Part shown: piece by piece, positions 5,701 through 61,100 of the stretch
Numbering within the stretch: the stretch's first letter is position 1
Layout of the letters: every line of letters begins with the position of its first letter
Origin: a virus
Lineage: Duplodnaviria > Caudoviricetes
Direction: 5' to 3' (one strand)
Virus record (IMG/VR): IMGVR_UViG_3300033463_000049
Coordinates: 1 to 64,000 of that record
DNA: 64,000 bases
The notes under the pieces: generated by a model
Databases searched by the model: none
The model's input: the letters and a program-made list of their open reading frames with translations, nothing else
Told to the model about the DNA's origin: nothing
Translations under genes and position numbers: made by a program

Positions 5701-6213
5701 TTAATCGATGATTGTAAATTTCTTGCCGTCAATAATTGTGTCAGTCCTAATTTTAGGAGACGACTCGTTCAGAAGCTTGTCAAGCTGTACGTCTGATGAA
5801 TCTTTCGGCCTTTCGGATAGTTTTGTACTGATAGAGGAGTCAATGAATTTATAGACAGTATTATAATTCTGCCTATATTCATATACAATATCCCTCTTGG
5901 TTGCACTACCCTGCCGTTTAATAACGACTTGAGCAATGTTAACTAAAGCTTCCTGTGGGATAGCCCGGAACGTTGAATCAATAGAGTTTTCATCAGCTAT
6001 TCGTTGTCGAAACTGATAAACATCATCAACCGACATAAACGTCGGATTGAGCACACTGGCAACAGCCTCTTTGAGCTGTGCGTTTTCTGTTGTGTCTTCT
6101 AATAGGTAATCAGCATACTTCTGATCCTCGTAGTAGTTATAGCCCAGCGAAGACACAATACTGAGCGCTACTACCCCGACTATTGTCAGGAGAACATAAA
6201 CAAATTTCTTCAT
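5701..6213 (-). CDS. membrane-anchored hypothetical protein
   Basis: N-terminal TM or signal helix; CATTATCAAA-ATG motif. Confidence 0.8.
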   Translation of the reverse strand: MKKFVYVLLTIVGVVALSIVSSLGYNYYEDQKYADYLLEDTTENAQLKEAVASVLNPTFMSVDDVYQFRQRIADENSIDSTFRAIPQEALVNIAQVVIKRQGSATKRDIVYEYRQNYNTVYKFIDSSISTKLSERPKDSSDVQLDKLLNESSPKIRTDTIIDGKKFTIID

Positions 6214-6244
6214 TTTGATAATGAGAATTTAATTAAACAATTGG

Positions 6245-6487
6245 TCATTTCTGACCGTCGGATTTTCTAATTCCTTCCCACTCACTGATAAATATTACTA
6301 AGAATACTATAGTGAGTATTGCAGATGCAACGAATTGACAGGTATTGTGAAGATTTGCATCTTTCTTCATGTCGTCATACGACATGCCGGTTACTGCCAA
6401 TAGTCCCAAAAGAGCAACGAAATACATTGTAGAGATGATAATTCTCTCCGCAAATGTTTTAATTTTCACACCATTTCCCATAATCAT
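6245..6487 (-). CDS. small two-TM membrane protein
   Basis: Two hydrophobic helices. Confidence 0.65.
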   Translation of the reverse strand: MIMGNGVKIKTFAERIIISTMYFVALLGLLAVTGMSYDDMKKDANLHNTCQFVASAILTIVFLVIFISEWEGIRKSDGQK

Positions 6488-6731
6488 TTTCGTTAAGGAA
6501 ATACGATTCGTTGTCCTCTAAGCAAGAGTCACGACGTTCATGCAAATCATAATCAGAGAATGATACTACACATATGTCAGCATCATCTGCCTCTTTCCAT
6601 GTTTTGTATTGAACATTGTTTTCTTCACACCACTTTTTCATGTGGCGTACATTCATGTGGTGACCGCGAACTGCCATTTCACGTTCTCCATAGGTGCGTC
6701 TACACCTTCTCAGTTTCTTTTTCGCTTCCAT
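6459..6731 (-). CDS. hypothetical protein
   Basis: 90-aa ORF. Confidence 0.6.
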   Translation of the reverse strand: MEAKKKLRRCRRTYGEREMAVRGHHMNVRHMKKWCEENNVQYKTWKEADDADICVVSFSDYDLHERRDSCLEDNESYFLNENDYGKWCEN

Positions 6732-6842
6732 TGTTGTTTACGATTTGATTGAACTGACAAAAAACGCATACGGCTGCGTTGCATTCTGTACAATCGTTGT
6801 TGTTCATAATAATTGTTTAATTGTTTCTGCAATATTGCATTG

Positions 6843-6915
6843 TGTGTCGTGTTGGACTCAAACCAACGACCTCCGGCTTATCGAGCCGGTGCTCTATCAA
6901 CTGAGCTAACGACAC
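6843..6915 (-). tRNA. tRNA-Ile(GAU) with C33
   Basis: GTGTCGT/ACGACAC acceptor; CCGGC-TC-GAT-AA-GCCGG; T loop TTTGAGT. Confidence 0.8.
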
Positions 6916-7050
6916 TGTCGCCTATAGACGTCTGGCGACAACTGTGGATATTTCTGTATCTCCTAGCAGCGGGTCTTCTATTTATAAGCTGCTTCTTGCG
7001 CGACCCCGATTTCGTAACATCCATACCACAGCATCCGTTTTAATGGTTTG

Positions 7051-7122
7051 TAGTCGATAGCAGAATCGAACTGCTCTTTAGAGAATGAAAATCTCTCGTC
7101 CTAACCGATAGACGAATCGACC
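7051..7122 (-). tRNA. tRNA-Glu(UUC)
   Basis: GGTCGAT/ATCGACT; AGAGA-TT-TTC-AT-TCTCT; AGCAG-TTCGATT-CTGCT. Confidence 0.9.
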
Positions 7123-7127
7123 GAATT

Positions 7128-7222
7128 AAAAATCAGTACCACTCTCACGAGCAATACTGATTCACATCATACCATGAGCAAAACTTTGAAATCTAACATT
7201 ACTCTCACGAGCTATGATAGAA
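7128..7222 (-). terminator. two tandem GUGA-tetraloop hairpins, the downstream one with a U tract
   Basis: ACTCTCACGAGC core repeated at 7141 and 7201; AATCAGTATTGCTC-GTGA-GAGTGGTACTGATT-TTT. Confidence 0.55.
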
Positions 7223-7344
7223 CAAAAGTAAGCCAATCATTTTTACCAATAACTAAAGGTTTAATTGTGCCAGGATTTTCATAAATCCGAATGAGACAAT
7301 TCAAAAAGATTAACAAGGTATATGCGTTTAAAAAATAACGTTAG

Positions 7345-7416
7345 TTAGGGAGGGCGGATTCAAACCACCGTCTACAGAAACCATATCTGTCGCTCTAAAC
7401 GCTGAGCTACTCCCCA
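7345..7416 (-). tRNA. tRNA-Pro(UGG)-like with atypical anticodon loop
   Basis: TGGGGAG/CTCCCTA; ACAGA-TA-TGG-TT-TCTGT (A33, U37); D loop lacks GG. Confidence 0.65.
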
Positions 7417-7896
7417 GGTGTACGTGTATTTACCCACGCACAGGTGTCAGCTTCTTTTTAAGTCTCCTCTGACCACGACTTTGTACCGACTAGCCCCAAC
7501 ATCTAGAATGGTCACGGTACTGTGGGGTCTAATAGCATTACCCCTTTGTACACACTTACGATCTATATTATCGTAAGCCTTGACGGATTGTCGATCCGGC
7601 ATGATTGTAGGTCGAGTGACGCGTCTTTCAGGTTTCCTTGTTTAATTCTGACTAACCTGATAAAAATCCAGACGCCTACAATCTGCATGCGCACCCTCTC
7701 ATCATTCGTACTGAGATCCCTAGGAATTTCCATGGAGTCTGATTCACTCAATACTTGCGGGCTTGAGGTTTCCGCTTTAGCTGATTTCTATGCATACTGC
7801 GGCAGGGGAGCTAATAACTTAAAACAAACTTATGGCTTCAAACTCATTCATTTGCTCCCCCACCGCGCGTGAGAATATATGAAAGTAATTAAAGTA

Positions 7897-10344: not shown

Positions 10345-10692
10345 TCATAAGCCAATTGTATCTACTTTGCAAATAGTATCCCTTTTCACCTGTTGTACAG
10401 GTAAGTCGGGAAACGCCAAACGCATACGACGATACGTGCTATCTTTGATAATAACTGGAGGTATAGGACCTATCAGTTCTTCAAGAATGCACCATTCGTC
10501 TGTTTCAGATAGTACATCGAGCACAAAATCTGCATCATGCTCTTCCACCACGTACAAGATGTCGATAATTGCTTTCTCCAATCTTGCACATTTCTCACAA
10601 TATGCATCGGACTTAGTCTGTGCAGAAACGAAATTACACTCAACTAAGCCGATGCATACCAACGCGATTATGAACAACGTAAGCTTTTTCAT
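10345..10692 (-). CDS. secreted or membrane hypothetical protein
   Basis: N-terminal signal-like segment. Confidence 0.7.
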   Translation of the reverse strand: MKKLTLFIIALVCIGLVECNFVSAQTKSDAYCEKCARLEKAIIDILYVVEEHDADFVLDVLSETDEWCILEELIGPIPPVIIKDSTYRRMRLAFPDLPVQQVKRDTICKVDTIGL

Positions 10693-10890
10693 CTTTCAAC
10701 CGGGAAATTTCTCTTTGTTGTAACATTTCCACGGCGACTTGTCTCGCACACATATTGTTGTGCACGAAAGTCGTATCTCACACTTATTTTTGCATCCATG
10801 ATTTGATACGATCTATAAGCCATTGTGTTATTGCTACGACGACAACGAAAGCTATCGCTGCCTCAAAGAGGATTATTGCCAACTGTGCAT

Positions 10891-11232
10891 TCATTTCTTC
10901 AATGCATTTAGTTGTTCTGTGATTTTCGGCAGGTATCGACGATACATTTTACCTGTCTTTTTCGATCGGAGCCAGCAATACGCTTTCCCCTTACTTGAGA
11001 GAAACACAGGGTACTTGAAACCCTGAAGATCTTGATAGTAGAAATTTGTTTTCACACTATCACCAGTTGTAGTTTGTTGGATAAATGTATTACCCTTCAA
11101 AACTACATTTTGTCCTCTCAAGCCATGCGCAATGGCTAAGAATCCAAGGATGAGGACAATGATACCTAGGATTCTCGATGATCGTTTTATCATATGTTTA
11201 AATGGTGAATTCAAACAAAGTTGTGTAAACAT
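10891..11232 (-). CDS. membrane-anchored hypothetical protein
   Basis: TM helix, then YQDLQGFKYPVFLSSKGKAY...SKKTGKMYRRYLP. Confidence 0.75.
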   Translation of the reverse strand: MFTQLCLNSPFKHMIKRSSRILGIIVLILGFLAIAHGLRGQNVVLKGNTFIQQTTTGDSVKTNFYYQDLQGFKYPVFLSSKGKAYCWLRSKKTGKMYRRYLPKITEQLNALKK

Positions 11233-11234
11233 AT

Positions 11235-11271
11235 AAAAAGGGAGCGGACTTATGCCTAAGCAGCCGCTCCC
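11235..11271 (-). terminator. intrinsic terminator
   Basis: GGGAGCGG/CCGCTCCC stem followed by TTTTT on the minus strand. Confidence 0.6.
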
Positions 11272-11280
11272 CTACATGTT

Positions 11281-12093
11281 AACACATCGTTGCGCTTTCT
11301 ATCCTCCCAGTGGGTTGATGTACTCGATGTGGGATTCAGCCAATGCCTTCCATTGACCTCTCCTATAAATCCACACCTAGTAACTTACTAGTTTAGGTTG
11401 GTGTGCCACAATGGTTACGCAACATACTCATTGTAGTATAATTATTCCTTTGATGAAATAACTATAGATTGTAACCTCTAAGGGATTTGCGTGTGAGTCG
11501 AGTAACAGAGACACTCACTCCCCGTTGTATTGATAGGATACAACTGACCGATTCTACCTAGGTAGATTACCACTCGGCTAATGGGTTCAACTATTCCAGT
11601 GGACACATCACTGTTCAAGTCTAGCGTGTGTTTGTCGGGGACACGCATCCTCCCTTAGATAGTAGTCTATCGGCCAGGCAGCAGGCATCAGATAGTACAC
11701 ACAAATGGTCTTGTGTTGACCTGACTATCTTTAGCCTGAACTTCGGGACGTATCCCGAACATCTGCCAATTTGTTTGTAAACTCTTTCCCCTGCAAGCGG
11801 TCAAACCTACAGGGTACTGTTACCATGTAAAATTTGAATTGATTGCGAAATCCCAACTCACTCGAATAATCGATATAGGCGCCAGTTGCCGTGACACGTG
11901 GGATCTACTGGACTTATGAGGAAGTTTACATATTGTGCTCGCTGTCTAATGCCACCTGATATTATCAGGAATGGGAACAACTGCGGTTTAGCACTTACTC
12001 TCTTGCCTCACGGCAGCACGAGCACTTTGATATATGATATTCACGTTGCTCTGCAATATGCAGGTTGTACGTGGAGAGCGCAAATTTTGTGTT
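11281..12093. ncRNA. candidate large (about 810 nt) structured non-coding RNA
   Basis: No credible ORF; end-closing helix 11290-11300/12073-12083; many nested helices. Confidence 0.55.
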
Positions 12094-12203
12094 TATTTTA
12101 ACTTTATACAATAGGCTATATATTAAGAGAAAATAAGCCTATGAATAAGAGAAAATACAACAATTCCGAAAGTGAGGTGGCTCTCCTGCGAGAGCCTGCC
12201 CAC

Positions 12204-12860
12204 TTATAGACCTAAATCGTCAGCGGTTTTTGTGTCCGCTTTCGTTTCGGTCGGTACGTTCAAATCTCCGTCATCAATACGACGCAACAAGTTGTTGCGT
12301 AACATATTTGTCGCGCTTTCAGTATCGGTAAAAACTCCGTAAAAGATTTTACTTTGTTCCGAAATTCGTACAACCGCGCCGTCAGCGTTTTCGTACTCCA
12401 AATACTCTGTACCCTCGTACTTTGTACCCTTCAGGAGTGCGGACACGCTTTCAGTCAAAACGGAAAAAACTGAAGTGTTTCCCAAACCCTCGAAGTACTC
12501 ACGAAGTTTTCCTTCAAGTTTCGTTTGTTGCTCGTCAGTCAGACCGCCTTTGGGAGTCTTGAACGTTTTCCCGTCTCCCAAATCCAAATCCAAATCGTCA
12601 GCCGTAAAAACACCTGAATAACGAATTTGAGTGCGGTTTTTTAGTATCGTCTGTTTCATTTTCTCGCGTACTTTTTCGTCAGTAACACGCGAAAGAATTT
12701 CGTTTTCTTTGTCTGAGAGTGTATCTCCGTCAGAGAACGAAATAACGATACGATAACCCGTTTGGGGTTCGTAGCCCGCGCGTTCCTCACGATTACGCGC
12801 TTTTAGCGTGTCGGGAATTTCGACCAACACGATTTTTGCCAAATCAAATTTTGTCTGCAT
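12204..12860 (-). CDS. acidic hypothetical protein with distinct nucleotide composition
   Basis: 218-aa ORF, CpG-rich, followed by a hairpin at 12171-12204. Confidence 0.85.
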   Translation of the reverse strand: MQTKFDLAKIVLVEIPDTLKARNREERAGYEPQTGYRIVISFSDGDTLSDKENEILSRVTDEKVREKMKQTILKNRTQIRYSGVFTADDLDLDLGDGKTFKTPKGGLTDEQQTKLEGKLREYFEGLGNTSVFSVLTESVSALLKGTKYEGTEYLEYENADGAVVRISEQSKIFYGVFTDTESATNMLRNNLLRRIDDGDLNVPTETKADTKTADDLGL

Positions 12861-13010
12861 GATGTAAAACGTATTAAGTATATGTAATGTATAGGGGGAA
12901 CCTTTCCCCCATACGCATGTACTGGGGTGTGAAGTCTGCTATTTCTCCTTTCCACACTCACACAAAAAAATAAAAAATTTTTAAAAAATTTTCACCGTGT
13001 AGTAGTGTAC

Positions 13011-56018: not shown

Positions 56019-58145
56019 ATGATATACGCTTATGATCAGAATATACAATATCCAGTAAAGGATTTGTATGATAGCTAGATGATAGCAATGAGTATTGCTG
56101 CAGCTAAGGATATGTATGAGAAGGGTCAATAGGAAATCAAAGAGTTTAAAAAGGAATTTGGAGATTTTTACAGTCCGTTTAAAAAGGACATGGCTAGGTA
56201 TGGTCAAATCGTAAGCGGAGTAAAAGACACCATTGACAATCTTTACGCAAACGGAATAGATCCAATTAGAAGTGCAGAAGGTAGGGCTGCTGTCAGCAGA
56301 GCTATTCAGAGTGTTGATCCTGCTGAATTGAATAACATGCGCGCAAATGCAAAAGTTGGATATGCGTATTTGGATGCATTGCAGAAGTTAAATTCTCAAG
56401 GCAAATATGATCCAAACATGCAGAATGCGTATTTGAGATCACAAGGCTTGCCGACATTTGAAGAGTTTAGTTCTGAGGGTGGTAACGCATGGACCCAATC
56501 TTCGCCAATGGAAGCTATAAACCTCAGAGACCTAACCTCTCCGGGCTTTGCGCATAGAACTGCACACGAGCTTACCAGGGAGCAAGCTATGCGAGAAATG
56601 GGATCTTCATATGACCCGAGAGCAAAATATACCGGATTTACATATGACGATCTGTTTGATACGGCCGGAATGCTTGTTCCAGGACTTCGCGGAGATTGGA
56701 GAGCTGAATATTTCAGGGATATTTCTGCACAAAAAGCACTGGCTAAGAATCCAAATGCCACGCAAGCAGACATTGATAAATAGTTTTAGAGTGATATTGC
56801 TGAAGCAAACAGATAGTGGATAATAGAGCCGAGTGGAAAATTGGACGATTACTACAAAGAGGCTGGATTGCAATTAGATAGGCAAAAGCTTGGATTGGAA
56901 GCTGCGAGAATGGCACAAGCACAGCGCAATGCAGACAGATCTTTCCAATTAGAACTGCTTAAAAATGGAATAGGAATAGATCCAAAGACTGGAAGATTTG
57001 TTGCCGCCACACCATCAGACATGAGTGGATATGTCCAACCGGTAGAACAGAGGTAGATTGATAAAAATGTAAAAGGTAGAGCAGACGCTCTCGGTAGTTA
57101 TCAATAGGTACTATAGTTATGGATGCAACAGAATCAGAAGACAATTGACGACTACGAAAGAGAAAAGCGTGCGAGTACTATCGGATATAGAGAAGAACAG
57201 ACGCCTGCTACAAAAATTTCAAAATATCCAAGTGCAGTAGGTGGGGTTATTCCGCAATTTGGTAACACATCTGGTACGATTACTAAAAAAGTTCCGTACA
57301 TAAAAAATGCAGCATCTGATGAGCGACTTGCTAAATTAAAGAAAAACGCAGACACCGCTAGATACAATATCAGAGAAATAAAAAAGATGATGTCTGGTGG
57401 AGTTGAACAGCTTAAACGTAGAGGTTACTTGGATGCAAACGGATTCCCGACTGAAAGATATACCAAACTTGTTACAAAACTGTATCTCAATAAGGATAGA
57501 ATGGCGGGTTTGTCGCAAACACAAAAACAGTAGACTGTAAACGGATTGTTTAACTCGCTATATTCTGCTGGCGATTTGGCGGCTGGTGATTTCAAAAATT
57601 GGAGAGATTCTCAATTTGCTTCTGGTAATTTAGAGACGCTTCCTGGAACCAAAGATAAGAAAATGAGATCTGTATACACAGGAGAATATACCTACGCTCC
57701 AGTATACAAGAATGCTGCTCTTGGTGTAAAGATGGGCGAATCTTCGATGGAAATTCGAATAAATAATTGGCTTACTAATAATATACAGGCATGGGACTTC
57801 TCCAGTAAAAAGTAGGATTATTTCTTACCTGGTAAAGGCGGAGAAAAATATGCAACCGAAGGTCCTCTGTTAATATCAGAAACGTCGTTAAAAGAGTTTG
57901 CAAAACTGTATGGATATAGTCTTTCAGATGTAACTAAAAAACAGAATCTCCGCAGACATTCCTATAAAAAGGAAGGATCTCCGTACGAAACTGTTTATTA
58001 CGAAATTCCAGTATTTAAAGATTTGAATAATAACGGAGGCTTTAATTATTATAGAATAAACGAAACTGTGAATAAAAAAGACTTCGGTTCGAGTTAGAGT
58101 GCAAAAGACAGAGAAGATGCACAACATCAGTCTGTAATGAATTGA
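56019..58145 (+). CDS. putative cargo or ejection protein (708 aa)
   Basis: Single frame through TAGs; position after the first cargo gene. Confidence 0.7.
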
Positions 58146-58149
58146 TTGT

Positions 58150-61100
58150 ATGAAAAAACAAATATATAACCCTAGATATCAACAAGGTGAAGCGATATTG
58201 TAGAACCTGCGGAGCAATAAAGTCCGCAGGTCTTACGCTTCATATGCCCCTGTGTACGAAGGCGTTATATCTCCAATAGAGTATGAGTAGAACGACAGCG
58301 CAGCGCAATACGATTCTAGTGGAGATGTTGTAGCGGAAGACAAGGGAGGAGTACTTTCCGGAATAGGAGAGTTTTTATTTGGAGATTATCACCACGCTGC
58401 AGATAGATTTGCGGAAGCAAGTTTAGCAGACTCGTGGAGATTGTTTCACGAAAAACGTCTGCAGGCAGAAACTACTAACAAATTAAATCTGGTTTCAGAA
58501 GCAGAAAGTAAACTCAGTGAATTAAAACGCGCTGAAGATTATGCGGATTCTGTCGATAAATATAATAATCTTCTACAGTAGTATTCTAATGCAATAAAGT
58601 AGAACAACTTAGAAGGCGCGCGCAACATAAAGAGTGAAATAGATAAGTGCATAAAAGACATCGTTTCTTTTTAGACCGATATAAAATTTAAAGGCAAAAA
58701 CAGCGATATAAATGTAGATTTGTTTTTCGATCCGTCGAAAGATGAAAAACAAGGAAAGTATATTAGAAACGAGGTTCGTAGAAACGTTTTAAAAGAAAAC
58801 TTAACTTGGGATAGAAGAGAGCCAATTGGTACATCGGCTGCGTTATCTTGGGTTTAGAATTTGTTTGAGAGCGGTCAAATGGCCATACAAAAGGCGATTT
58901 CTCCAGAACAAGCTAGAGGAAACTTTACAAAAAAAGCAATCAAATAGAGTTTATCTGGAGACAGGTGGACCGATTATTTATTCGAAGGGTATGACGAAAA
59001 AGATGGTCCAACTACTACGGATTTGCGAAACAAGATACAGCCTTATAAAAACTATTGGGAAAGACAGTTAGAGAATCGAAAGATTGATGCTATTAAATCC
59101 AGTATTTAGTATAAAAACGGAAACTGGTTGTTTGATCCTCAAAAAATAAATCCAAAGTTTAGACAATACTCTGAAAACAACGATTCTGGTCTAATTGGAG
59201 GATTGCTTCCAGACCAACTGCTGTATTCGTTTTCTGAACTCGGAAGTTCTTGGAGTGATTGGCAAAATATGGCATTGATGACAATGTCCGATGTCGCAGC
59301 AGGATATGGTGCAAAGGTTCTTACTAATTTCGCAGTAAAGAGAAGTCCTTATATAAACGCAGTTTTAGCAATAGACCAATATAACAGATTGAAAACTGCG
59401 GGAAGATTTGCAGAAGCTTCTAAACTTGAAAAGACTGTTGCCGCTGCAAAAAAACTGGTACCACAGGCCGTAGTATCCGGAGTAAATTCAATAGAATCGG
59501 TAGGAAAAGGGGCCGCTATGTTGGCAAGTACATATTTTATAAATAGAATGCGTCAACATGAGACCAATTCCGAAGTAATGGATGCCTGGTCGAATCGTGT
59601 TTTACAGAATGCGATGGACAAAAATGCAGATATGACGAAAGTGCTAAATAACACAAAGGAATATCTGACGCAAATAGGAATACCTACCGAAAACATGACA
59701 GATATAGACCTCGTCCAACATGCTTTGGCGTACAACATACCAAGTGGAGATTCTACTTTCGAACAAGAAAAGGAATCCGCACGCAAGGGATTGGATAAAG
59801 TCTACAACGAAAACATGTCACTTGCAGCAAAGGATTACGTAGAGGCCTTGCCGTTTTTGTCGTTTTAGGGGTCTGTTTTAAAATCAATAGGAAACGGGTT
59901 TGTCAACAAATTAAAAGATAGAACCTACGCAAATGTGGCGAGGGGTATATTGGACAAGACCGCAGAAAGAGCTGTATCTAAGACGTTTTTAAATAGCAAT
60001 TTATCTAGCAAACTGGCATCCAAGCATACAGCAGATTACTTAGAGAGAGCTTTAAAAAAAGCTGGTTGGGTAGGTACTATGGAGGGTATCGAAGAAGGTC
60101 AGCAACATTTATTGCAGCAAAGATATTCGAGAGGCGAGTATGATGATTATAATACTCCTACGTCTCAATTCTCTCTTCCGTCCGTATTTAGAGACTTTAA
60201 TCTTGGTACAGATGCCGTCGGTGCATACTTGGGAATATTGTACGGCGATCCAGATAACGGCACTCCAGAATTGCGCAGGGCAATGCAAATAGGTGCAGTA
60301 GCTGGCATGTTGGGCGGCGGATTCGGCTTGGGTCTTGCATCAAACGTCCTTCCGTCAGAAGGTAGAGATAATATACGAAATTTAACAGCTCAACTTAGAA
60401 GTGATTTTGCTATAAACAAGATTTTGGGAGATTCTTACGGCACAGCTCAAGACACTGCTCACATGAACATGTTTTATGACGCCATGTAGAAACACGGTGT
60501 TACAAGGTAGCGGTTGCAGCAAAGCTTGGAGGATCTTCGACAATTTAAAGGGGAAAACGTCACCGATGATTATATTTCACGCGATGTAGAACTATTAAAT
60601 GATGTCTGGTACTATACGAACAGTGACAAGTTTAATTCTTCTATGAAGGACAGGAATATAAAAAAGAACTCTCCGGAATATAAAACCGAGGTTATAAATG
60701 CCGCCAAAAGAAGAACTTAGGTACGAGAACAGCTTCGATTTATACAAGAAAAGCTCAGAGAGCAGGATGGAATGAAAAATTCTGTTCTTAGAAAAGTATT
60801 TAATTCTTCTGACGGATTTAGTGAAGCCGAAGATCCGGAGGTAGACAGATTGGTGGATCAACTGTGGAAATCATACGACGAGTATAAAATAAACAGAAAA
60901 CAGACTCGTAAAAAGCTGGAAGAAGCTTTAAATAACGTTTAGACAAACGAGTATTCTCAAGAATGGCAGTTAAAGAAGGCAGAACAAGATTTGGAAGAGT
61001 TTGACAAATCTCAGGAACTTGGGTGGCATGATTATTTGGATCAGACCATTGACAAAATGATCGCCTATAGAACTCTCCAAAATGCAGAAATTTTAACAGA

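Follow-up and report, generated by a model that had tools for sequence, protein, structure and literature searches.

Evidence for a giant structured non-coding RNA in ruminant-gut crAss-like phages

A non-coding gap in a crAss-like phage genome

The window analyzed here is the first 64 kb (positions 1 to 64,000) of a 102-kb virus record in IMG/VR (IMGVR_UViG_3300033463_000049) that is rated complete by CheckV. Its genes include a major head protein of the crAss type, a large terminase and a portal, which identify the genome as crAss-like. The major head protein is 86% identical to that of the crAss-like phage cr272_1 (Crassvirales, Suoliviridae), and TAG must be read as an amino acid in many of the late genes. 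The genome that carries the element described here is that of a crAss-like phage from the cattle gut (Crassvirales), near the Suoliviridae phage cr272_1. Between two minus-strand open reading frames (ORFs) lies a gap (Table 1) for which a first-pass annotation, made from the sequence without database searches, had proposed a giant structured non-coding RNA (ncRNA) of about 810 nt, possibly of a new family. This proposal is supported: the gap holds a conserved body of 807 nt that shows strong covariation and has no match in Rfam.

Under code 11, no ORF of at least 70 aa is present in 11233-12203, and no long frame opens on either strand when TAG is read as glutamine, TGA as tryptophan or TAA as glutamine. 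Decoding by such an alternative genetic code was therefore rejected. The gap had been described as the longest ORF-free stretch in the window. It is indeed ORF-free, but with a 70-aa cut-off under code 11 it ranks second, after a gap at 57816-58825 that closes when TAG is read as glutamine. Neither Pfam nor PHROGs gave a function for any neighboring protein, and the 218-aa product of the upstream ORF, used as bait, found no relative among viral contigs or in the phage collection. No match to RVT_1 (reverse transcriptase) was found in the whole 102-kb genome.

The element is conserved beyond its flanking genes

Homologues were sought with the flanking proteins as bait, then with a shared 29-mer, and then with conserved blocks as DNA patterns. 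The flanking proteins were poor bait and recovered one related 101-kb phage (G001, locus L002), which has 29 nt in common with the element. The pattern searches yielded ten distinct homologues in ruminant-gut viral and metagenome contigs, and element length among the members ranges from 788 to 1012 nt. There is a close subtype (L006; L008, on the same contig as L017; L010; L014; and the partial L013) and a divergent subtype (L009, on the same contig as L016; L011, which matches L015 over the compared stretches; L012; and L018). Common to both are a core of ~160 nt, the architecture of a 5' stem-loop and the 3' motif AAGCGCAAC..UGUGUUAAC. The locus is syntenic across carriers, 4-8 kb upstream of a cluster of transfer RNA (tRNA) and transfer-messenger RNA (tmRNA) genes, which lies on the same strand in the window, L006, L011 and L017.

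The element is better conserved than its surroundings. The window element aligns with that of L006 from end to end at 71-93% identity, while across the surrounding 8 kb only one 51-nt match, ~2.4 kb away, aligns outside it. Where it occurs, the downstream protein has only 46-61% identity, and none of the relatives has a homologue of the upstream ORF. The conserved region begins precisely at GCGCUCUCC (12081) and ends at GUUAACAUG (11275). Indels of 1-2 nt are frequent among the homologues, and a small number of fixed sites carry insertions of entire modules (46-250 nt), a pattern that fits an RNA with variable peripheral arms and not a coding sequence. One such site, between ...AGUUGAA and the next helix (~600-660 in L014, with equivalents in L009 and L018), carries differing inserted modules, and L011 and L012 have ~250-nt expansions at the same place. 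The hairpin CUUGUUAUUCCGAGGGGAAAUCGGAAUC is common to the close-subtype member L014 and the divergent L009 and L018; its presence in both suggests module exchange between the subtypes.

A covariance model of the core, R1, scores 180 bits on the window core and matches this genome and the contig of L006 exactly once each. It has no match in G001, in cr272_1 or in the contig of a Clostridia metagenome-assembled genome (L019) that gave the sole pattern match in the genome collection. The L019 match, which has no further similarity to the element, was discarded as chance, about one match being expected for 20 fixed bases in 596 Gb. With blastn against INPHARED, neither the window element nor L011 had a match, and L006 was matched by a 58-nt module only.

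The element could also be what is left of a decayed protein gene, or else a selfish mobile insert, in either case without function for the phage. Such an origin would be compatible with the poor conservation of the flanks and with the complete relative G001, which lacks the element and has a 71-aa ORF in its place. However, the element is far better conserved than its flanks and its changes preserve helices; it is present as a single copy at a syntenic site in every carrier; and no target-site duplications, terminal repeats, transposase or reverse transcriptase were found. We consider such an origin highly improbable.

Compensatory changes support an extensive fold

Sequences were aligned with E-INS-i. 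For the five full-length close-subtype sequences, RNAalifold predicted 200 pairs, 65 of which carry at least one compensatory double change. With the addition of a 3' pseudoknot helix that was spotted by eye, the fold comprises 207 pairs in 35 helices, with 95.5% of cells paired and 69 compensatory pairs. Slid controls gave 7-13 compensatory pairs, and shuffles gave a mean of 26, with none of 500 reaching the observed number. The core, aligned across ten sequences, has 40 pairs (98.5% of cells paired), 21 of them compensatory, against 1-2 in slid controls and, again, 0/500 shuffles that reach the observed value. When the four divergent sequences are folded alone, 151 pairs are obtained (34 compensatory) and the same core helices appear. 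These results indicate that selection maintains the pairing of the element on the minus strand.

Both helices of the 5' stem-loop covary: the outer CACGU/ACGUG is replaced by CGUGU/ACACG, and CUGC/GCAG by UCGC/GCGA. The 3' pseudoknot helix alternates between CACAUCG/CGAUGUG and CAUACUG/CAGUAUG among members, with three compensatory positions, and the divergent subtype has CACAGUG/CACUGUG at this site. The core includes a 10-bp hairpin with the loop UUGACC and three conserved G.U pairs.

The motifs quoted in the first-pass annotation are all present at their positions, namely TTGCGCTTTCT (11290) and GGAGAGCGCAA (12073), AACAC (11281) and GTGTT (12089), TCTAAGGGA (11477) and TCCCTTAGA (11651), and GTGCTCG/CGAGCAC. 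Most of its helices gain support from the homologues, with compensatory changes in 6/7 pairs of AGATAGT/ACTATCT, in 5/5 pairs of TTCGGGA/TCCCGAA, and in two pairs each of GTGCTCG/CGAGCAC and GTTGTAT/ATACAAC. The TCTAAGGGA/TCCCTTAGA helix is kept in the homologues but is invariant. The proposed pairing of the ends survives in part: a terminal GCGCU/AGCGC helix is invariant in the close subtype, but its 5' half is absent from two divergent members. The adjoining AACAC/GTGTT pair is not conserved, its GTGTT side lying upstream of the conserved 5' boundary in unconserved sequence, and a GATT-GCGA-AATC hairpin was not recovered on the homologues.

Two pairs of complementary motifs may form further contacts. 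The invariant loop UUGACC and the core internal loop GGUCAA constitute a candidate loop-loop contact, intra- or intermolecular, which we infer rather than read from covariation because neither side varies. The motif GUUGCG, which forms the hexaloop of a covarying hairpin in the divergent subtype, is complementary to CGCAAC in the conserved 3' tail, and their pairing is a candidate tertiary or intermolecular contact.

Table 1 Features of the RNA locus (window coordinates; body boundaries from comparison with L006, L008, L010 and L014).
Feature	Position	Strand	Remarks
Downstream flanking ORF	10891-11232	-	
Gap between flanking ORFs	11233-12203		971 nt, ORF-free
Terminator-like hairpin	11234..11273	-	GGGGAGCGG...CCGCUCCC, then UUUUUAU; fold -22 kcal/mol, z -3.8
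Conserved body of structured RNA	11275..12081	-	807 nt; 5' GCGCUCUCC to 3' ...AAGCGCAACGAUGUGUUAACAUG; ~35 helices
Conserved 3' tail	11283..11297	-	AAGCGCAAC-GAUGUG; pseudoknot 3' strand (CGAUGUG, 11283-11289) and motif CGCAAC; kept in both subtypes
Pseudoknot helix, 5' strand	11325..11331	-	CACAUCG; pairs with CGAUGUG at 11283-11289
Loop motif	11418..11423	-	GUUGCG; conserved in 9/10 sequences (GUUGUA in L012)
Universally conserved core	11659..11820	-	~160 nt, 7 helices; covariation; R1
Core internal loop	11706..11711	-	GGUCAA; invariant; perfect complement of UUGACC loop
Hairpin loop	11799..11804	-	UUGACC; invariant in 10/10 sequences
5' stem-loop	12042..12073	-	Outer CACGU/ACGUG around hairpin CUGC-AUAUU-GCAG; both helices covary
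Upstream spacer	12084..12203	-	120 nt, unconserved; hairpin after upstream ORF; A/T-rich ...AAAATTTG box abutting 5' end
Direct repeat, two copies	12124-12135, 12146-12157	-	TATTTTCTCTTA
Upstream flanking ORF	12204-12860	-	

Strand of the RNA

The evidence favors the minus strand for the structured RNA, which is then co-directional with the flanking genes. The first-pass annotation, without settling the strand, had leaned from G-U content towards the plus strand, antisense to the flanking genes; this leaning proves wrong, since fold energy, G.U pairs in shared helices, terminators and a hammerhead all point to the minus strand. Folding the minus strand gives a minimum-free-energy z-score of -7.76, against -3.34 for the plus strand, indicating structure beyond chance. 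The alignment-fold energy is -184 kcal/mol for minus versus -165 kcal/mol for plus, with a covariation term twice as large for minus. In helices predicted on both strands, 24 cells are G.U and 12 are A.C. Two of the core hairpin wobbles are invariant in 10/10 sequences, and the third is G.U in 9/10. Raw G.U counts were set aside as a strand test, being uninformative because each strand's fold selects its own wobbles; the shared helices alone were of use for it.

Predicted ends of the transcript

A GC-rich hairpin (-20 to -29 kcal/mol) directly follows the conserved 3' end in 8/8 members checked, and it is in turn followed by UUUU(U)AU. The sequences of these hairpins differ among members, so that what is conserved is the feature itself. 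A simple terminator scan had missed them, their loops being beyond its limit, and folding revealed them. The 3' end of the transcript is thus predicted to lie at an intrinsic terminator, for a total of ~848 nt.

A terminator that a regulator could override, together with the co-orientation of the downstream genes, is also what would be expected of a giant cis-acting leader (attenuator- or riboswitch-like) that controls read-through into 10891-11232 and on towards the tRNA/tmRNA cluster, and homologues of the downstream gene do follow the element in L013, L014 and L006. However, the terminators are strong, conserved alternative pairings were not observed, the first ORF after the element in L006 is an unrelated one of 131 aa, and G001 has the same downstream gene without the RNA. 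To our knowledge, a leader of 800-1000 nt would also be far above the size of any described. A leader function therefore appears improbable.

At the 5' end, the upstream spacer presumably holds a putative promoter. Boxes of the TTT(G/A) type are found 0-5 nt upstream of GCGCUCUCC in L006, L014 and L002. A 12-bp repeat noted earlier, TAAGAGAAAATA, does occur twice beside the element (at 12124 and 12146), and a 7-bp inverted repeat, ATAGGCT/AGCCTAT, lies in 12108-12140; together they occupy positions 40-75 nt upstream of the RNA 5' end. Neither the direct nor the inverted repeat is conserved in any relative, and they could be a phage-specific promoter or operator, or noise.

In L008, from a 103-kb relative, a Hammerhead_3 match (L008:268-326, plus strand, equal to L017:1317-1375) ends 2 nt before GCGCUCUCC on the same strand as the RNA. 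Its score of 45.8 bits is just under the gathering score of 48.5 (expectation value, E, 3e-7), and the ribozyme can be read directly, with its three stems, a GUC cleavage site and the core CUGAUGAG...CGAAAC. Between this hammerhead and the upstream ORF there is no U-run terminator. From the position and score of the match, the L008 RNA is probably cut from a longer transcript, with most of the ribozyme staying on its 5' end. In the window itself, a permissive Rfam scan of 11100-12300 found no ribozyme. L018 has a further hammerhead match at 1333-1373 on the minus strand (24.9 bits, E 0.25), which is only partial because the contig ends there; it lies ~540 nt upstream of the RNA, with a terminator-like hairpin between.

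Presence in RNA libraries

A search of sequencing runs found most or all of the stretch (89-100% of sampled words) in four bovine-gut DNA runs and parts of it in eight metatranscriptome runs. Logan contigs from four bovine RNA studies, mapped to 10500-12900 at 80% similarity, covered 11267-12051 only. This cover is a hint of expression, not proof, as RNA libraries can contain DNA. The lack of any cover on the flanks was rejected as proof of a discrete transcript because the flanks of relatives cannot be aligned. In two studies, contigs end ~22-25 nt beyond 12042, a weak hint of a 5' end.

These observations also bear on whether the locus acts at the level of DNA, as a replication origin, packaging site or single-stranded DNA (ssDNA) structure, with no RNA made. 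The long non-coding stretch, its many inverted repeats and the direct repeats at 12124 and 12146 would suit such an element, and an origin or ssDNA structure had been raised as the alternative to an RNA. However, the compensatory changes and conserved G.U pairs (A.C mismatches on the other strand), the presence of terminators on one strand only, the hammerhead abutting the element in L008 and the cover by RNA libraries are features of an RNA, and the direct repeats are unconserved in relatives. GC skew changes sign near 15-16 kb, at the point of divergent transcription and away from the locus. Together, the skew and the RNA-specific features make a DNA-level element very unlikely indeed, to the point that we give it almost no weight.

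Comparison with known RNA families

Searches with Rfam models gave no match at the gathering score on the window and none at E up to 10 on 11100-12300, and the loci of the ten relatives (GOLLD, E up to 1) gave no family match to the element. Weak matches with E of about 1 (mir-BART16, SraB and snoRNAs) were dismissed as unrelated noise. The first-pass annotation had named GOLLD, ROOL and group I/II introns as models to search, and none of them matched: membership in GOLLD (RF01998) and ROOL (RF03087) was rejected for lack of a covariance-model match in the window or the relatives, and a group I or II intron was further rejected because the flanks are separate complete ORFs and a terminator follows the element. 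RNase P RNA, tmRNA, 6S and other housekeeping RNAs have no match within the element; tmRNA and tRNA genes lie elsewhere in the same arm of the genome.

GOLLD is a giant (at least 800 nt), ornate ncRNA of phages and prophages, often near tRNA islands and of unknown function, with one part universally conserved and another more variable (PMC12286853). Similarly, the RNA described here (788-1012 nt) is encoded by phages, its gene lies upstream of a tRNA/tmRNA island, and its conserved core and 3' end are accompanied by arms that vary. It differs in its carriers, which are Bacteroidota-type crAss-like phages, and in the location of the conserved part, which is central with a 3' tail instead of the conserved 3' domain of GOLLD. 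ROOL is a large RNA with several pseudoknots that was first found in cow rumen. Its genes are carried by phages and prophages and lie near tRNA islands, and its abundance, where measured, is very high (PMC12286853). The present RNA likewise originates from the gut of ruminants, is predicted to form pseudoknots and is represented among rumen metatranscriptome contigs, but it is longer, is unrelated to ROOL in sequence and helix layout, and is carried by crAss-like phages, whereas ROOL is carried by bacterial phages and prophages.

A structured ncRNA associated with the UG27 reverse transcriptase occurs in gut phage genomes, some of which cluster with Crassvirales; it adjoins the UG27 gene and has three long stem-loops (PMC9226505). 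The RNA here is far larger and its genome has no reverse transcriptase (RVT_1), so that this class was rejected. Literature searches brought up no account of a large RNA from crAss-like phages, and a survey of structured RNAs in IMG/VR reported motifs of 29-151 nt only.

Like the large ornate phage ncRNAs, the element is over 500 nt, non-coding and phage-encoded near a tRNA island, and it has many covariation-supported helices (69/207 pairs compensatory). Only a handful of bacterial and phage ncRNAs of more than 500 nt are left without a known function, and cryo-electron microscopy of GOLLD, ROOL and OLE revealed unexpected RNA-only assemblies (PMC12286853). The element is a previously undescribed family among the few giant ornate phage RNAs, and is neither GOLLD nor ROOL.

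Related phages without the RNA

G001 is a complete 101-kb relative that lacks the RNA, as judged by R1, but in which the first 29 nt of the RNA, forming the base of the 5' stem-loop, are retained. At L002:3685-3996, these 29 nt are followed by a 71-aa cysteine-rich ORF and then by a homologue of the window's downstream gene. The 5' stem-loop may thus be a general feature of this transcription unit.

Phage cr272_1 (NC_055903.1), the closest cultured-independent reference phage, has an unannotated gap of 1.5 kb on the same arm (6068-7580; L020:2470-3982). A RAGATH-1 hammerhead in this gap (L020 3125-3197) exceeds the gathering score with 73.2 bits, and no gene is annotated in the ~790 nt that follow it, an arrangement that mirrors the layout of hammerhead and large RNA in L008. 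The ~790-nt stretch has a fold z-score of -3.45, four hairpins of the type CYUG-GAAAGA-CRRG, and a 58-nt module that is 83% identical to an insert of L006 and L010. Unlike the RNA described here, however, the gap has no R1 match and none of the core motifs. Only one relative, near-identical to it, was found. The gap may hold a different giant RNA, at most analogous or extremely diverged.

Proposed nature and role of the RNA

Positions 12081 to ~11234 on the minus strand very probably form a stand-alone gene for a highly structured ncRNA of ~850 nt, representing an undescribed family of ruminant-gut crAss-like phages. We infer that the RNA constitutes its own transcription unit over this interval and is itself the functional product. 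Transcription would start at or just before the conserved 5' stem-loop, proceed in the direction of the neighboring genes and the downstream tRNA/tmRNA island, and end at the predicted intrinsic terminator; in one relative, L008, a type III hammerhead would set the 5' end instead of a promoter. Through the invariant complementary loops (UUGACC/GGUCAA and GUUGCG/CGCAAC), the RNA could self-associate or dock, and it may serve the RNA and translation module of the phage.

Several points weigh against this reading. The family is small, with 10 distinct sequences that come from the ruminant gut in every case, and the absence of the RNA from G001 means that it is dispensable for some relatives. A sigma-70 scan of the upstream spacer found no promoter, and the tRNA island is kilobases from the RNA and not adjacent to it. 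The terminal GCGCU/AGCGC helix and the proposed tertiary contacts never vary, so that covariation can lend them no support. Finally, the contigs from RNA libraries are strandless, and the flanks of relatives would not map, which makes the missing flank cover weak evidence.

As to mode of action, size, ornate fold, phage origin, a nearby island of RNA genes and presence in rumen RNA libraries all resemble GOLLD and ROOL, and on this analogy we tentatively favor a stable, trans-acting architectural RNA of the same kind, a guess held with distinctly less confidence than the gene itself. The RNA could instead be a large ribozyme of a new kind, or the RNA component of a ribonucleoprotein enzyme that processes, for example, RNAs of the tRNA/tmRNA island, with the invariant core as its active site or protein-binding platform. 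The very strong conservation of the core, the invariant unpaired nucleotides and the pseudoknots are consistent with this, as are a size and complexity within the range of RNase P and group I/II introns, and an arm rich in tRNAs, a permuted tmRNA, a hammerhead and, in L006, a sub-threshold twister-P1-like match. However, Rfam gave no match to RNase P, group I/II introns or any ribozyme family, no protein partner is consistently adjacent (upstream neighbors differ in every relative), and the sequence gives no pointer to a substrate. An enzyme of this kind is rather unlikely, although it ranks second to the architectural RNA.

A broader reading can be offered as a speculation that we regard as possible but doubtful. 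The RNA would be the first member of a new giant class specific to crAss-like phages. It would assemble with other RNA alone into a higher-order structure, or else make up a new machine, catalytic or ribonucleoprotein in nature, in the service of the phage toolkit for translation and RNA processing (tRNAs, suppressor tRNA, split tmRNA and ribozymes), and cr272_1-like phages would carry non-homologous counterparts released by hammerheads. If this is true, a ribozyme-processed giant RNA would be a general feature of this phage arm. More immediately, the new RNA makes it possible to ask if giant phage RNAs act in a common way, and it provides a well-defined target for structure determination. For annotation, at least one large unannotated gap in a crAss-like phage very likely holds an RNA gene, and a second, in cr272_1, holds a hammerhead ribozyme.

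Other RNA elements near the locus

Two further RNA elements were seen downstream of the RNA in relatives. In L006, a twister-P1-like match (L006:6563-6615, plus strand) reaches 46.2 bits, short of the gathering score of 67.2 (E 2e-7). It shares the strand of the RNA and is found 3.6 kb downstream of it, before the tmRNA/tRNA cluster. Permuted, two-piece tmRNAs scoring above the Rfam gathering score are located downstream of the RNA at L006:8980-9355 and L011:6279-6581.

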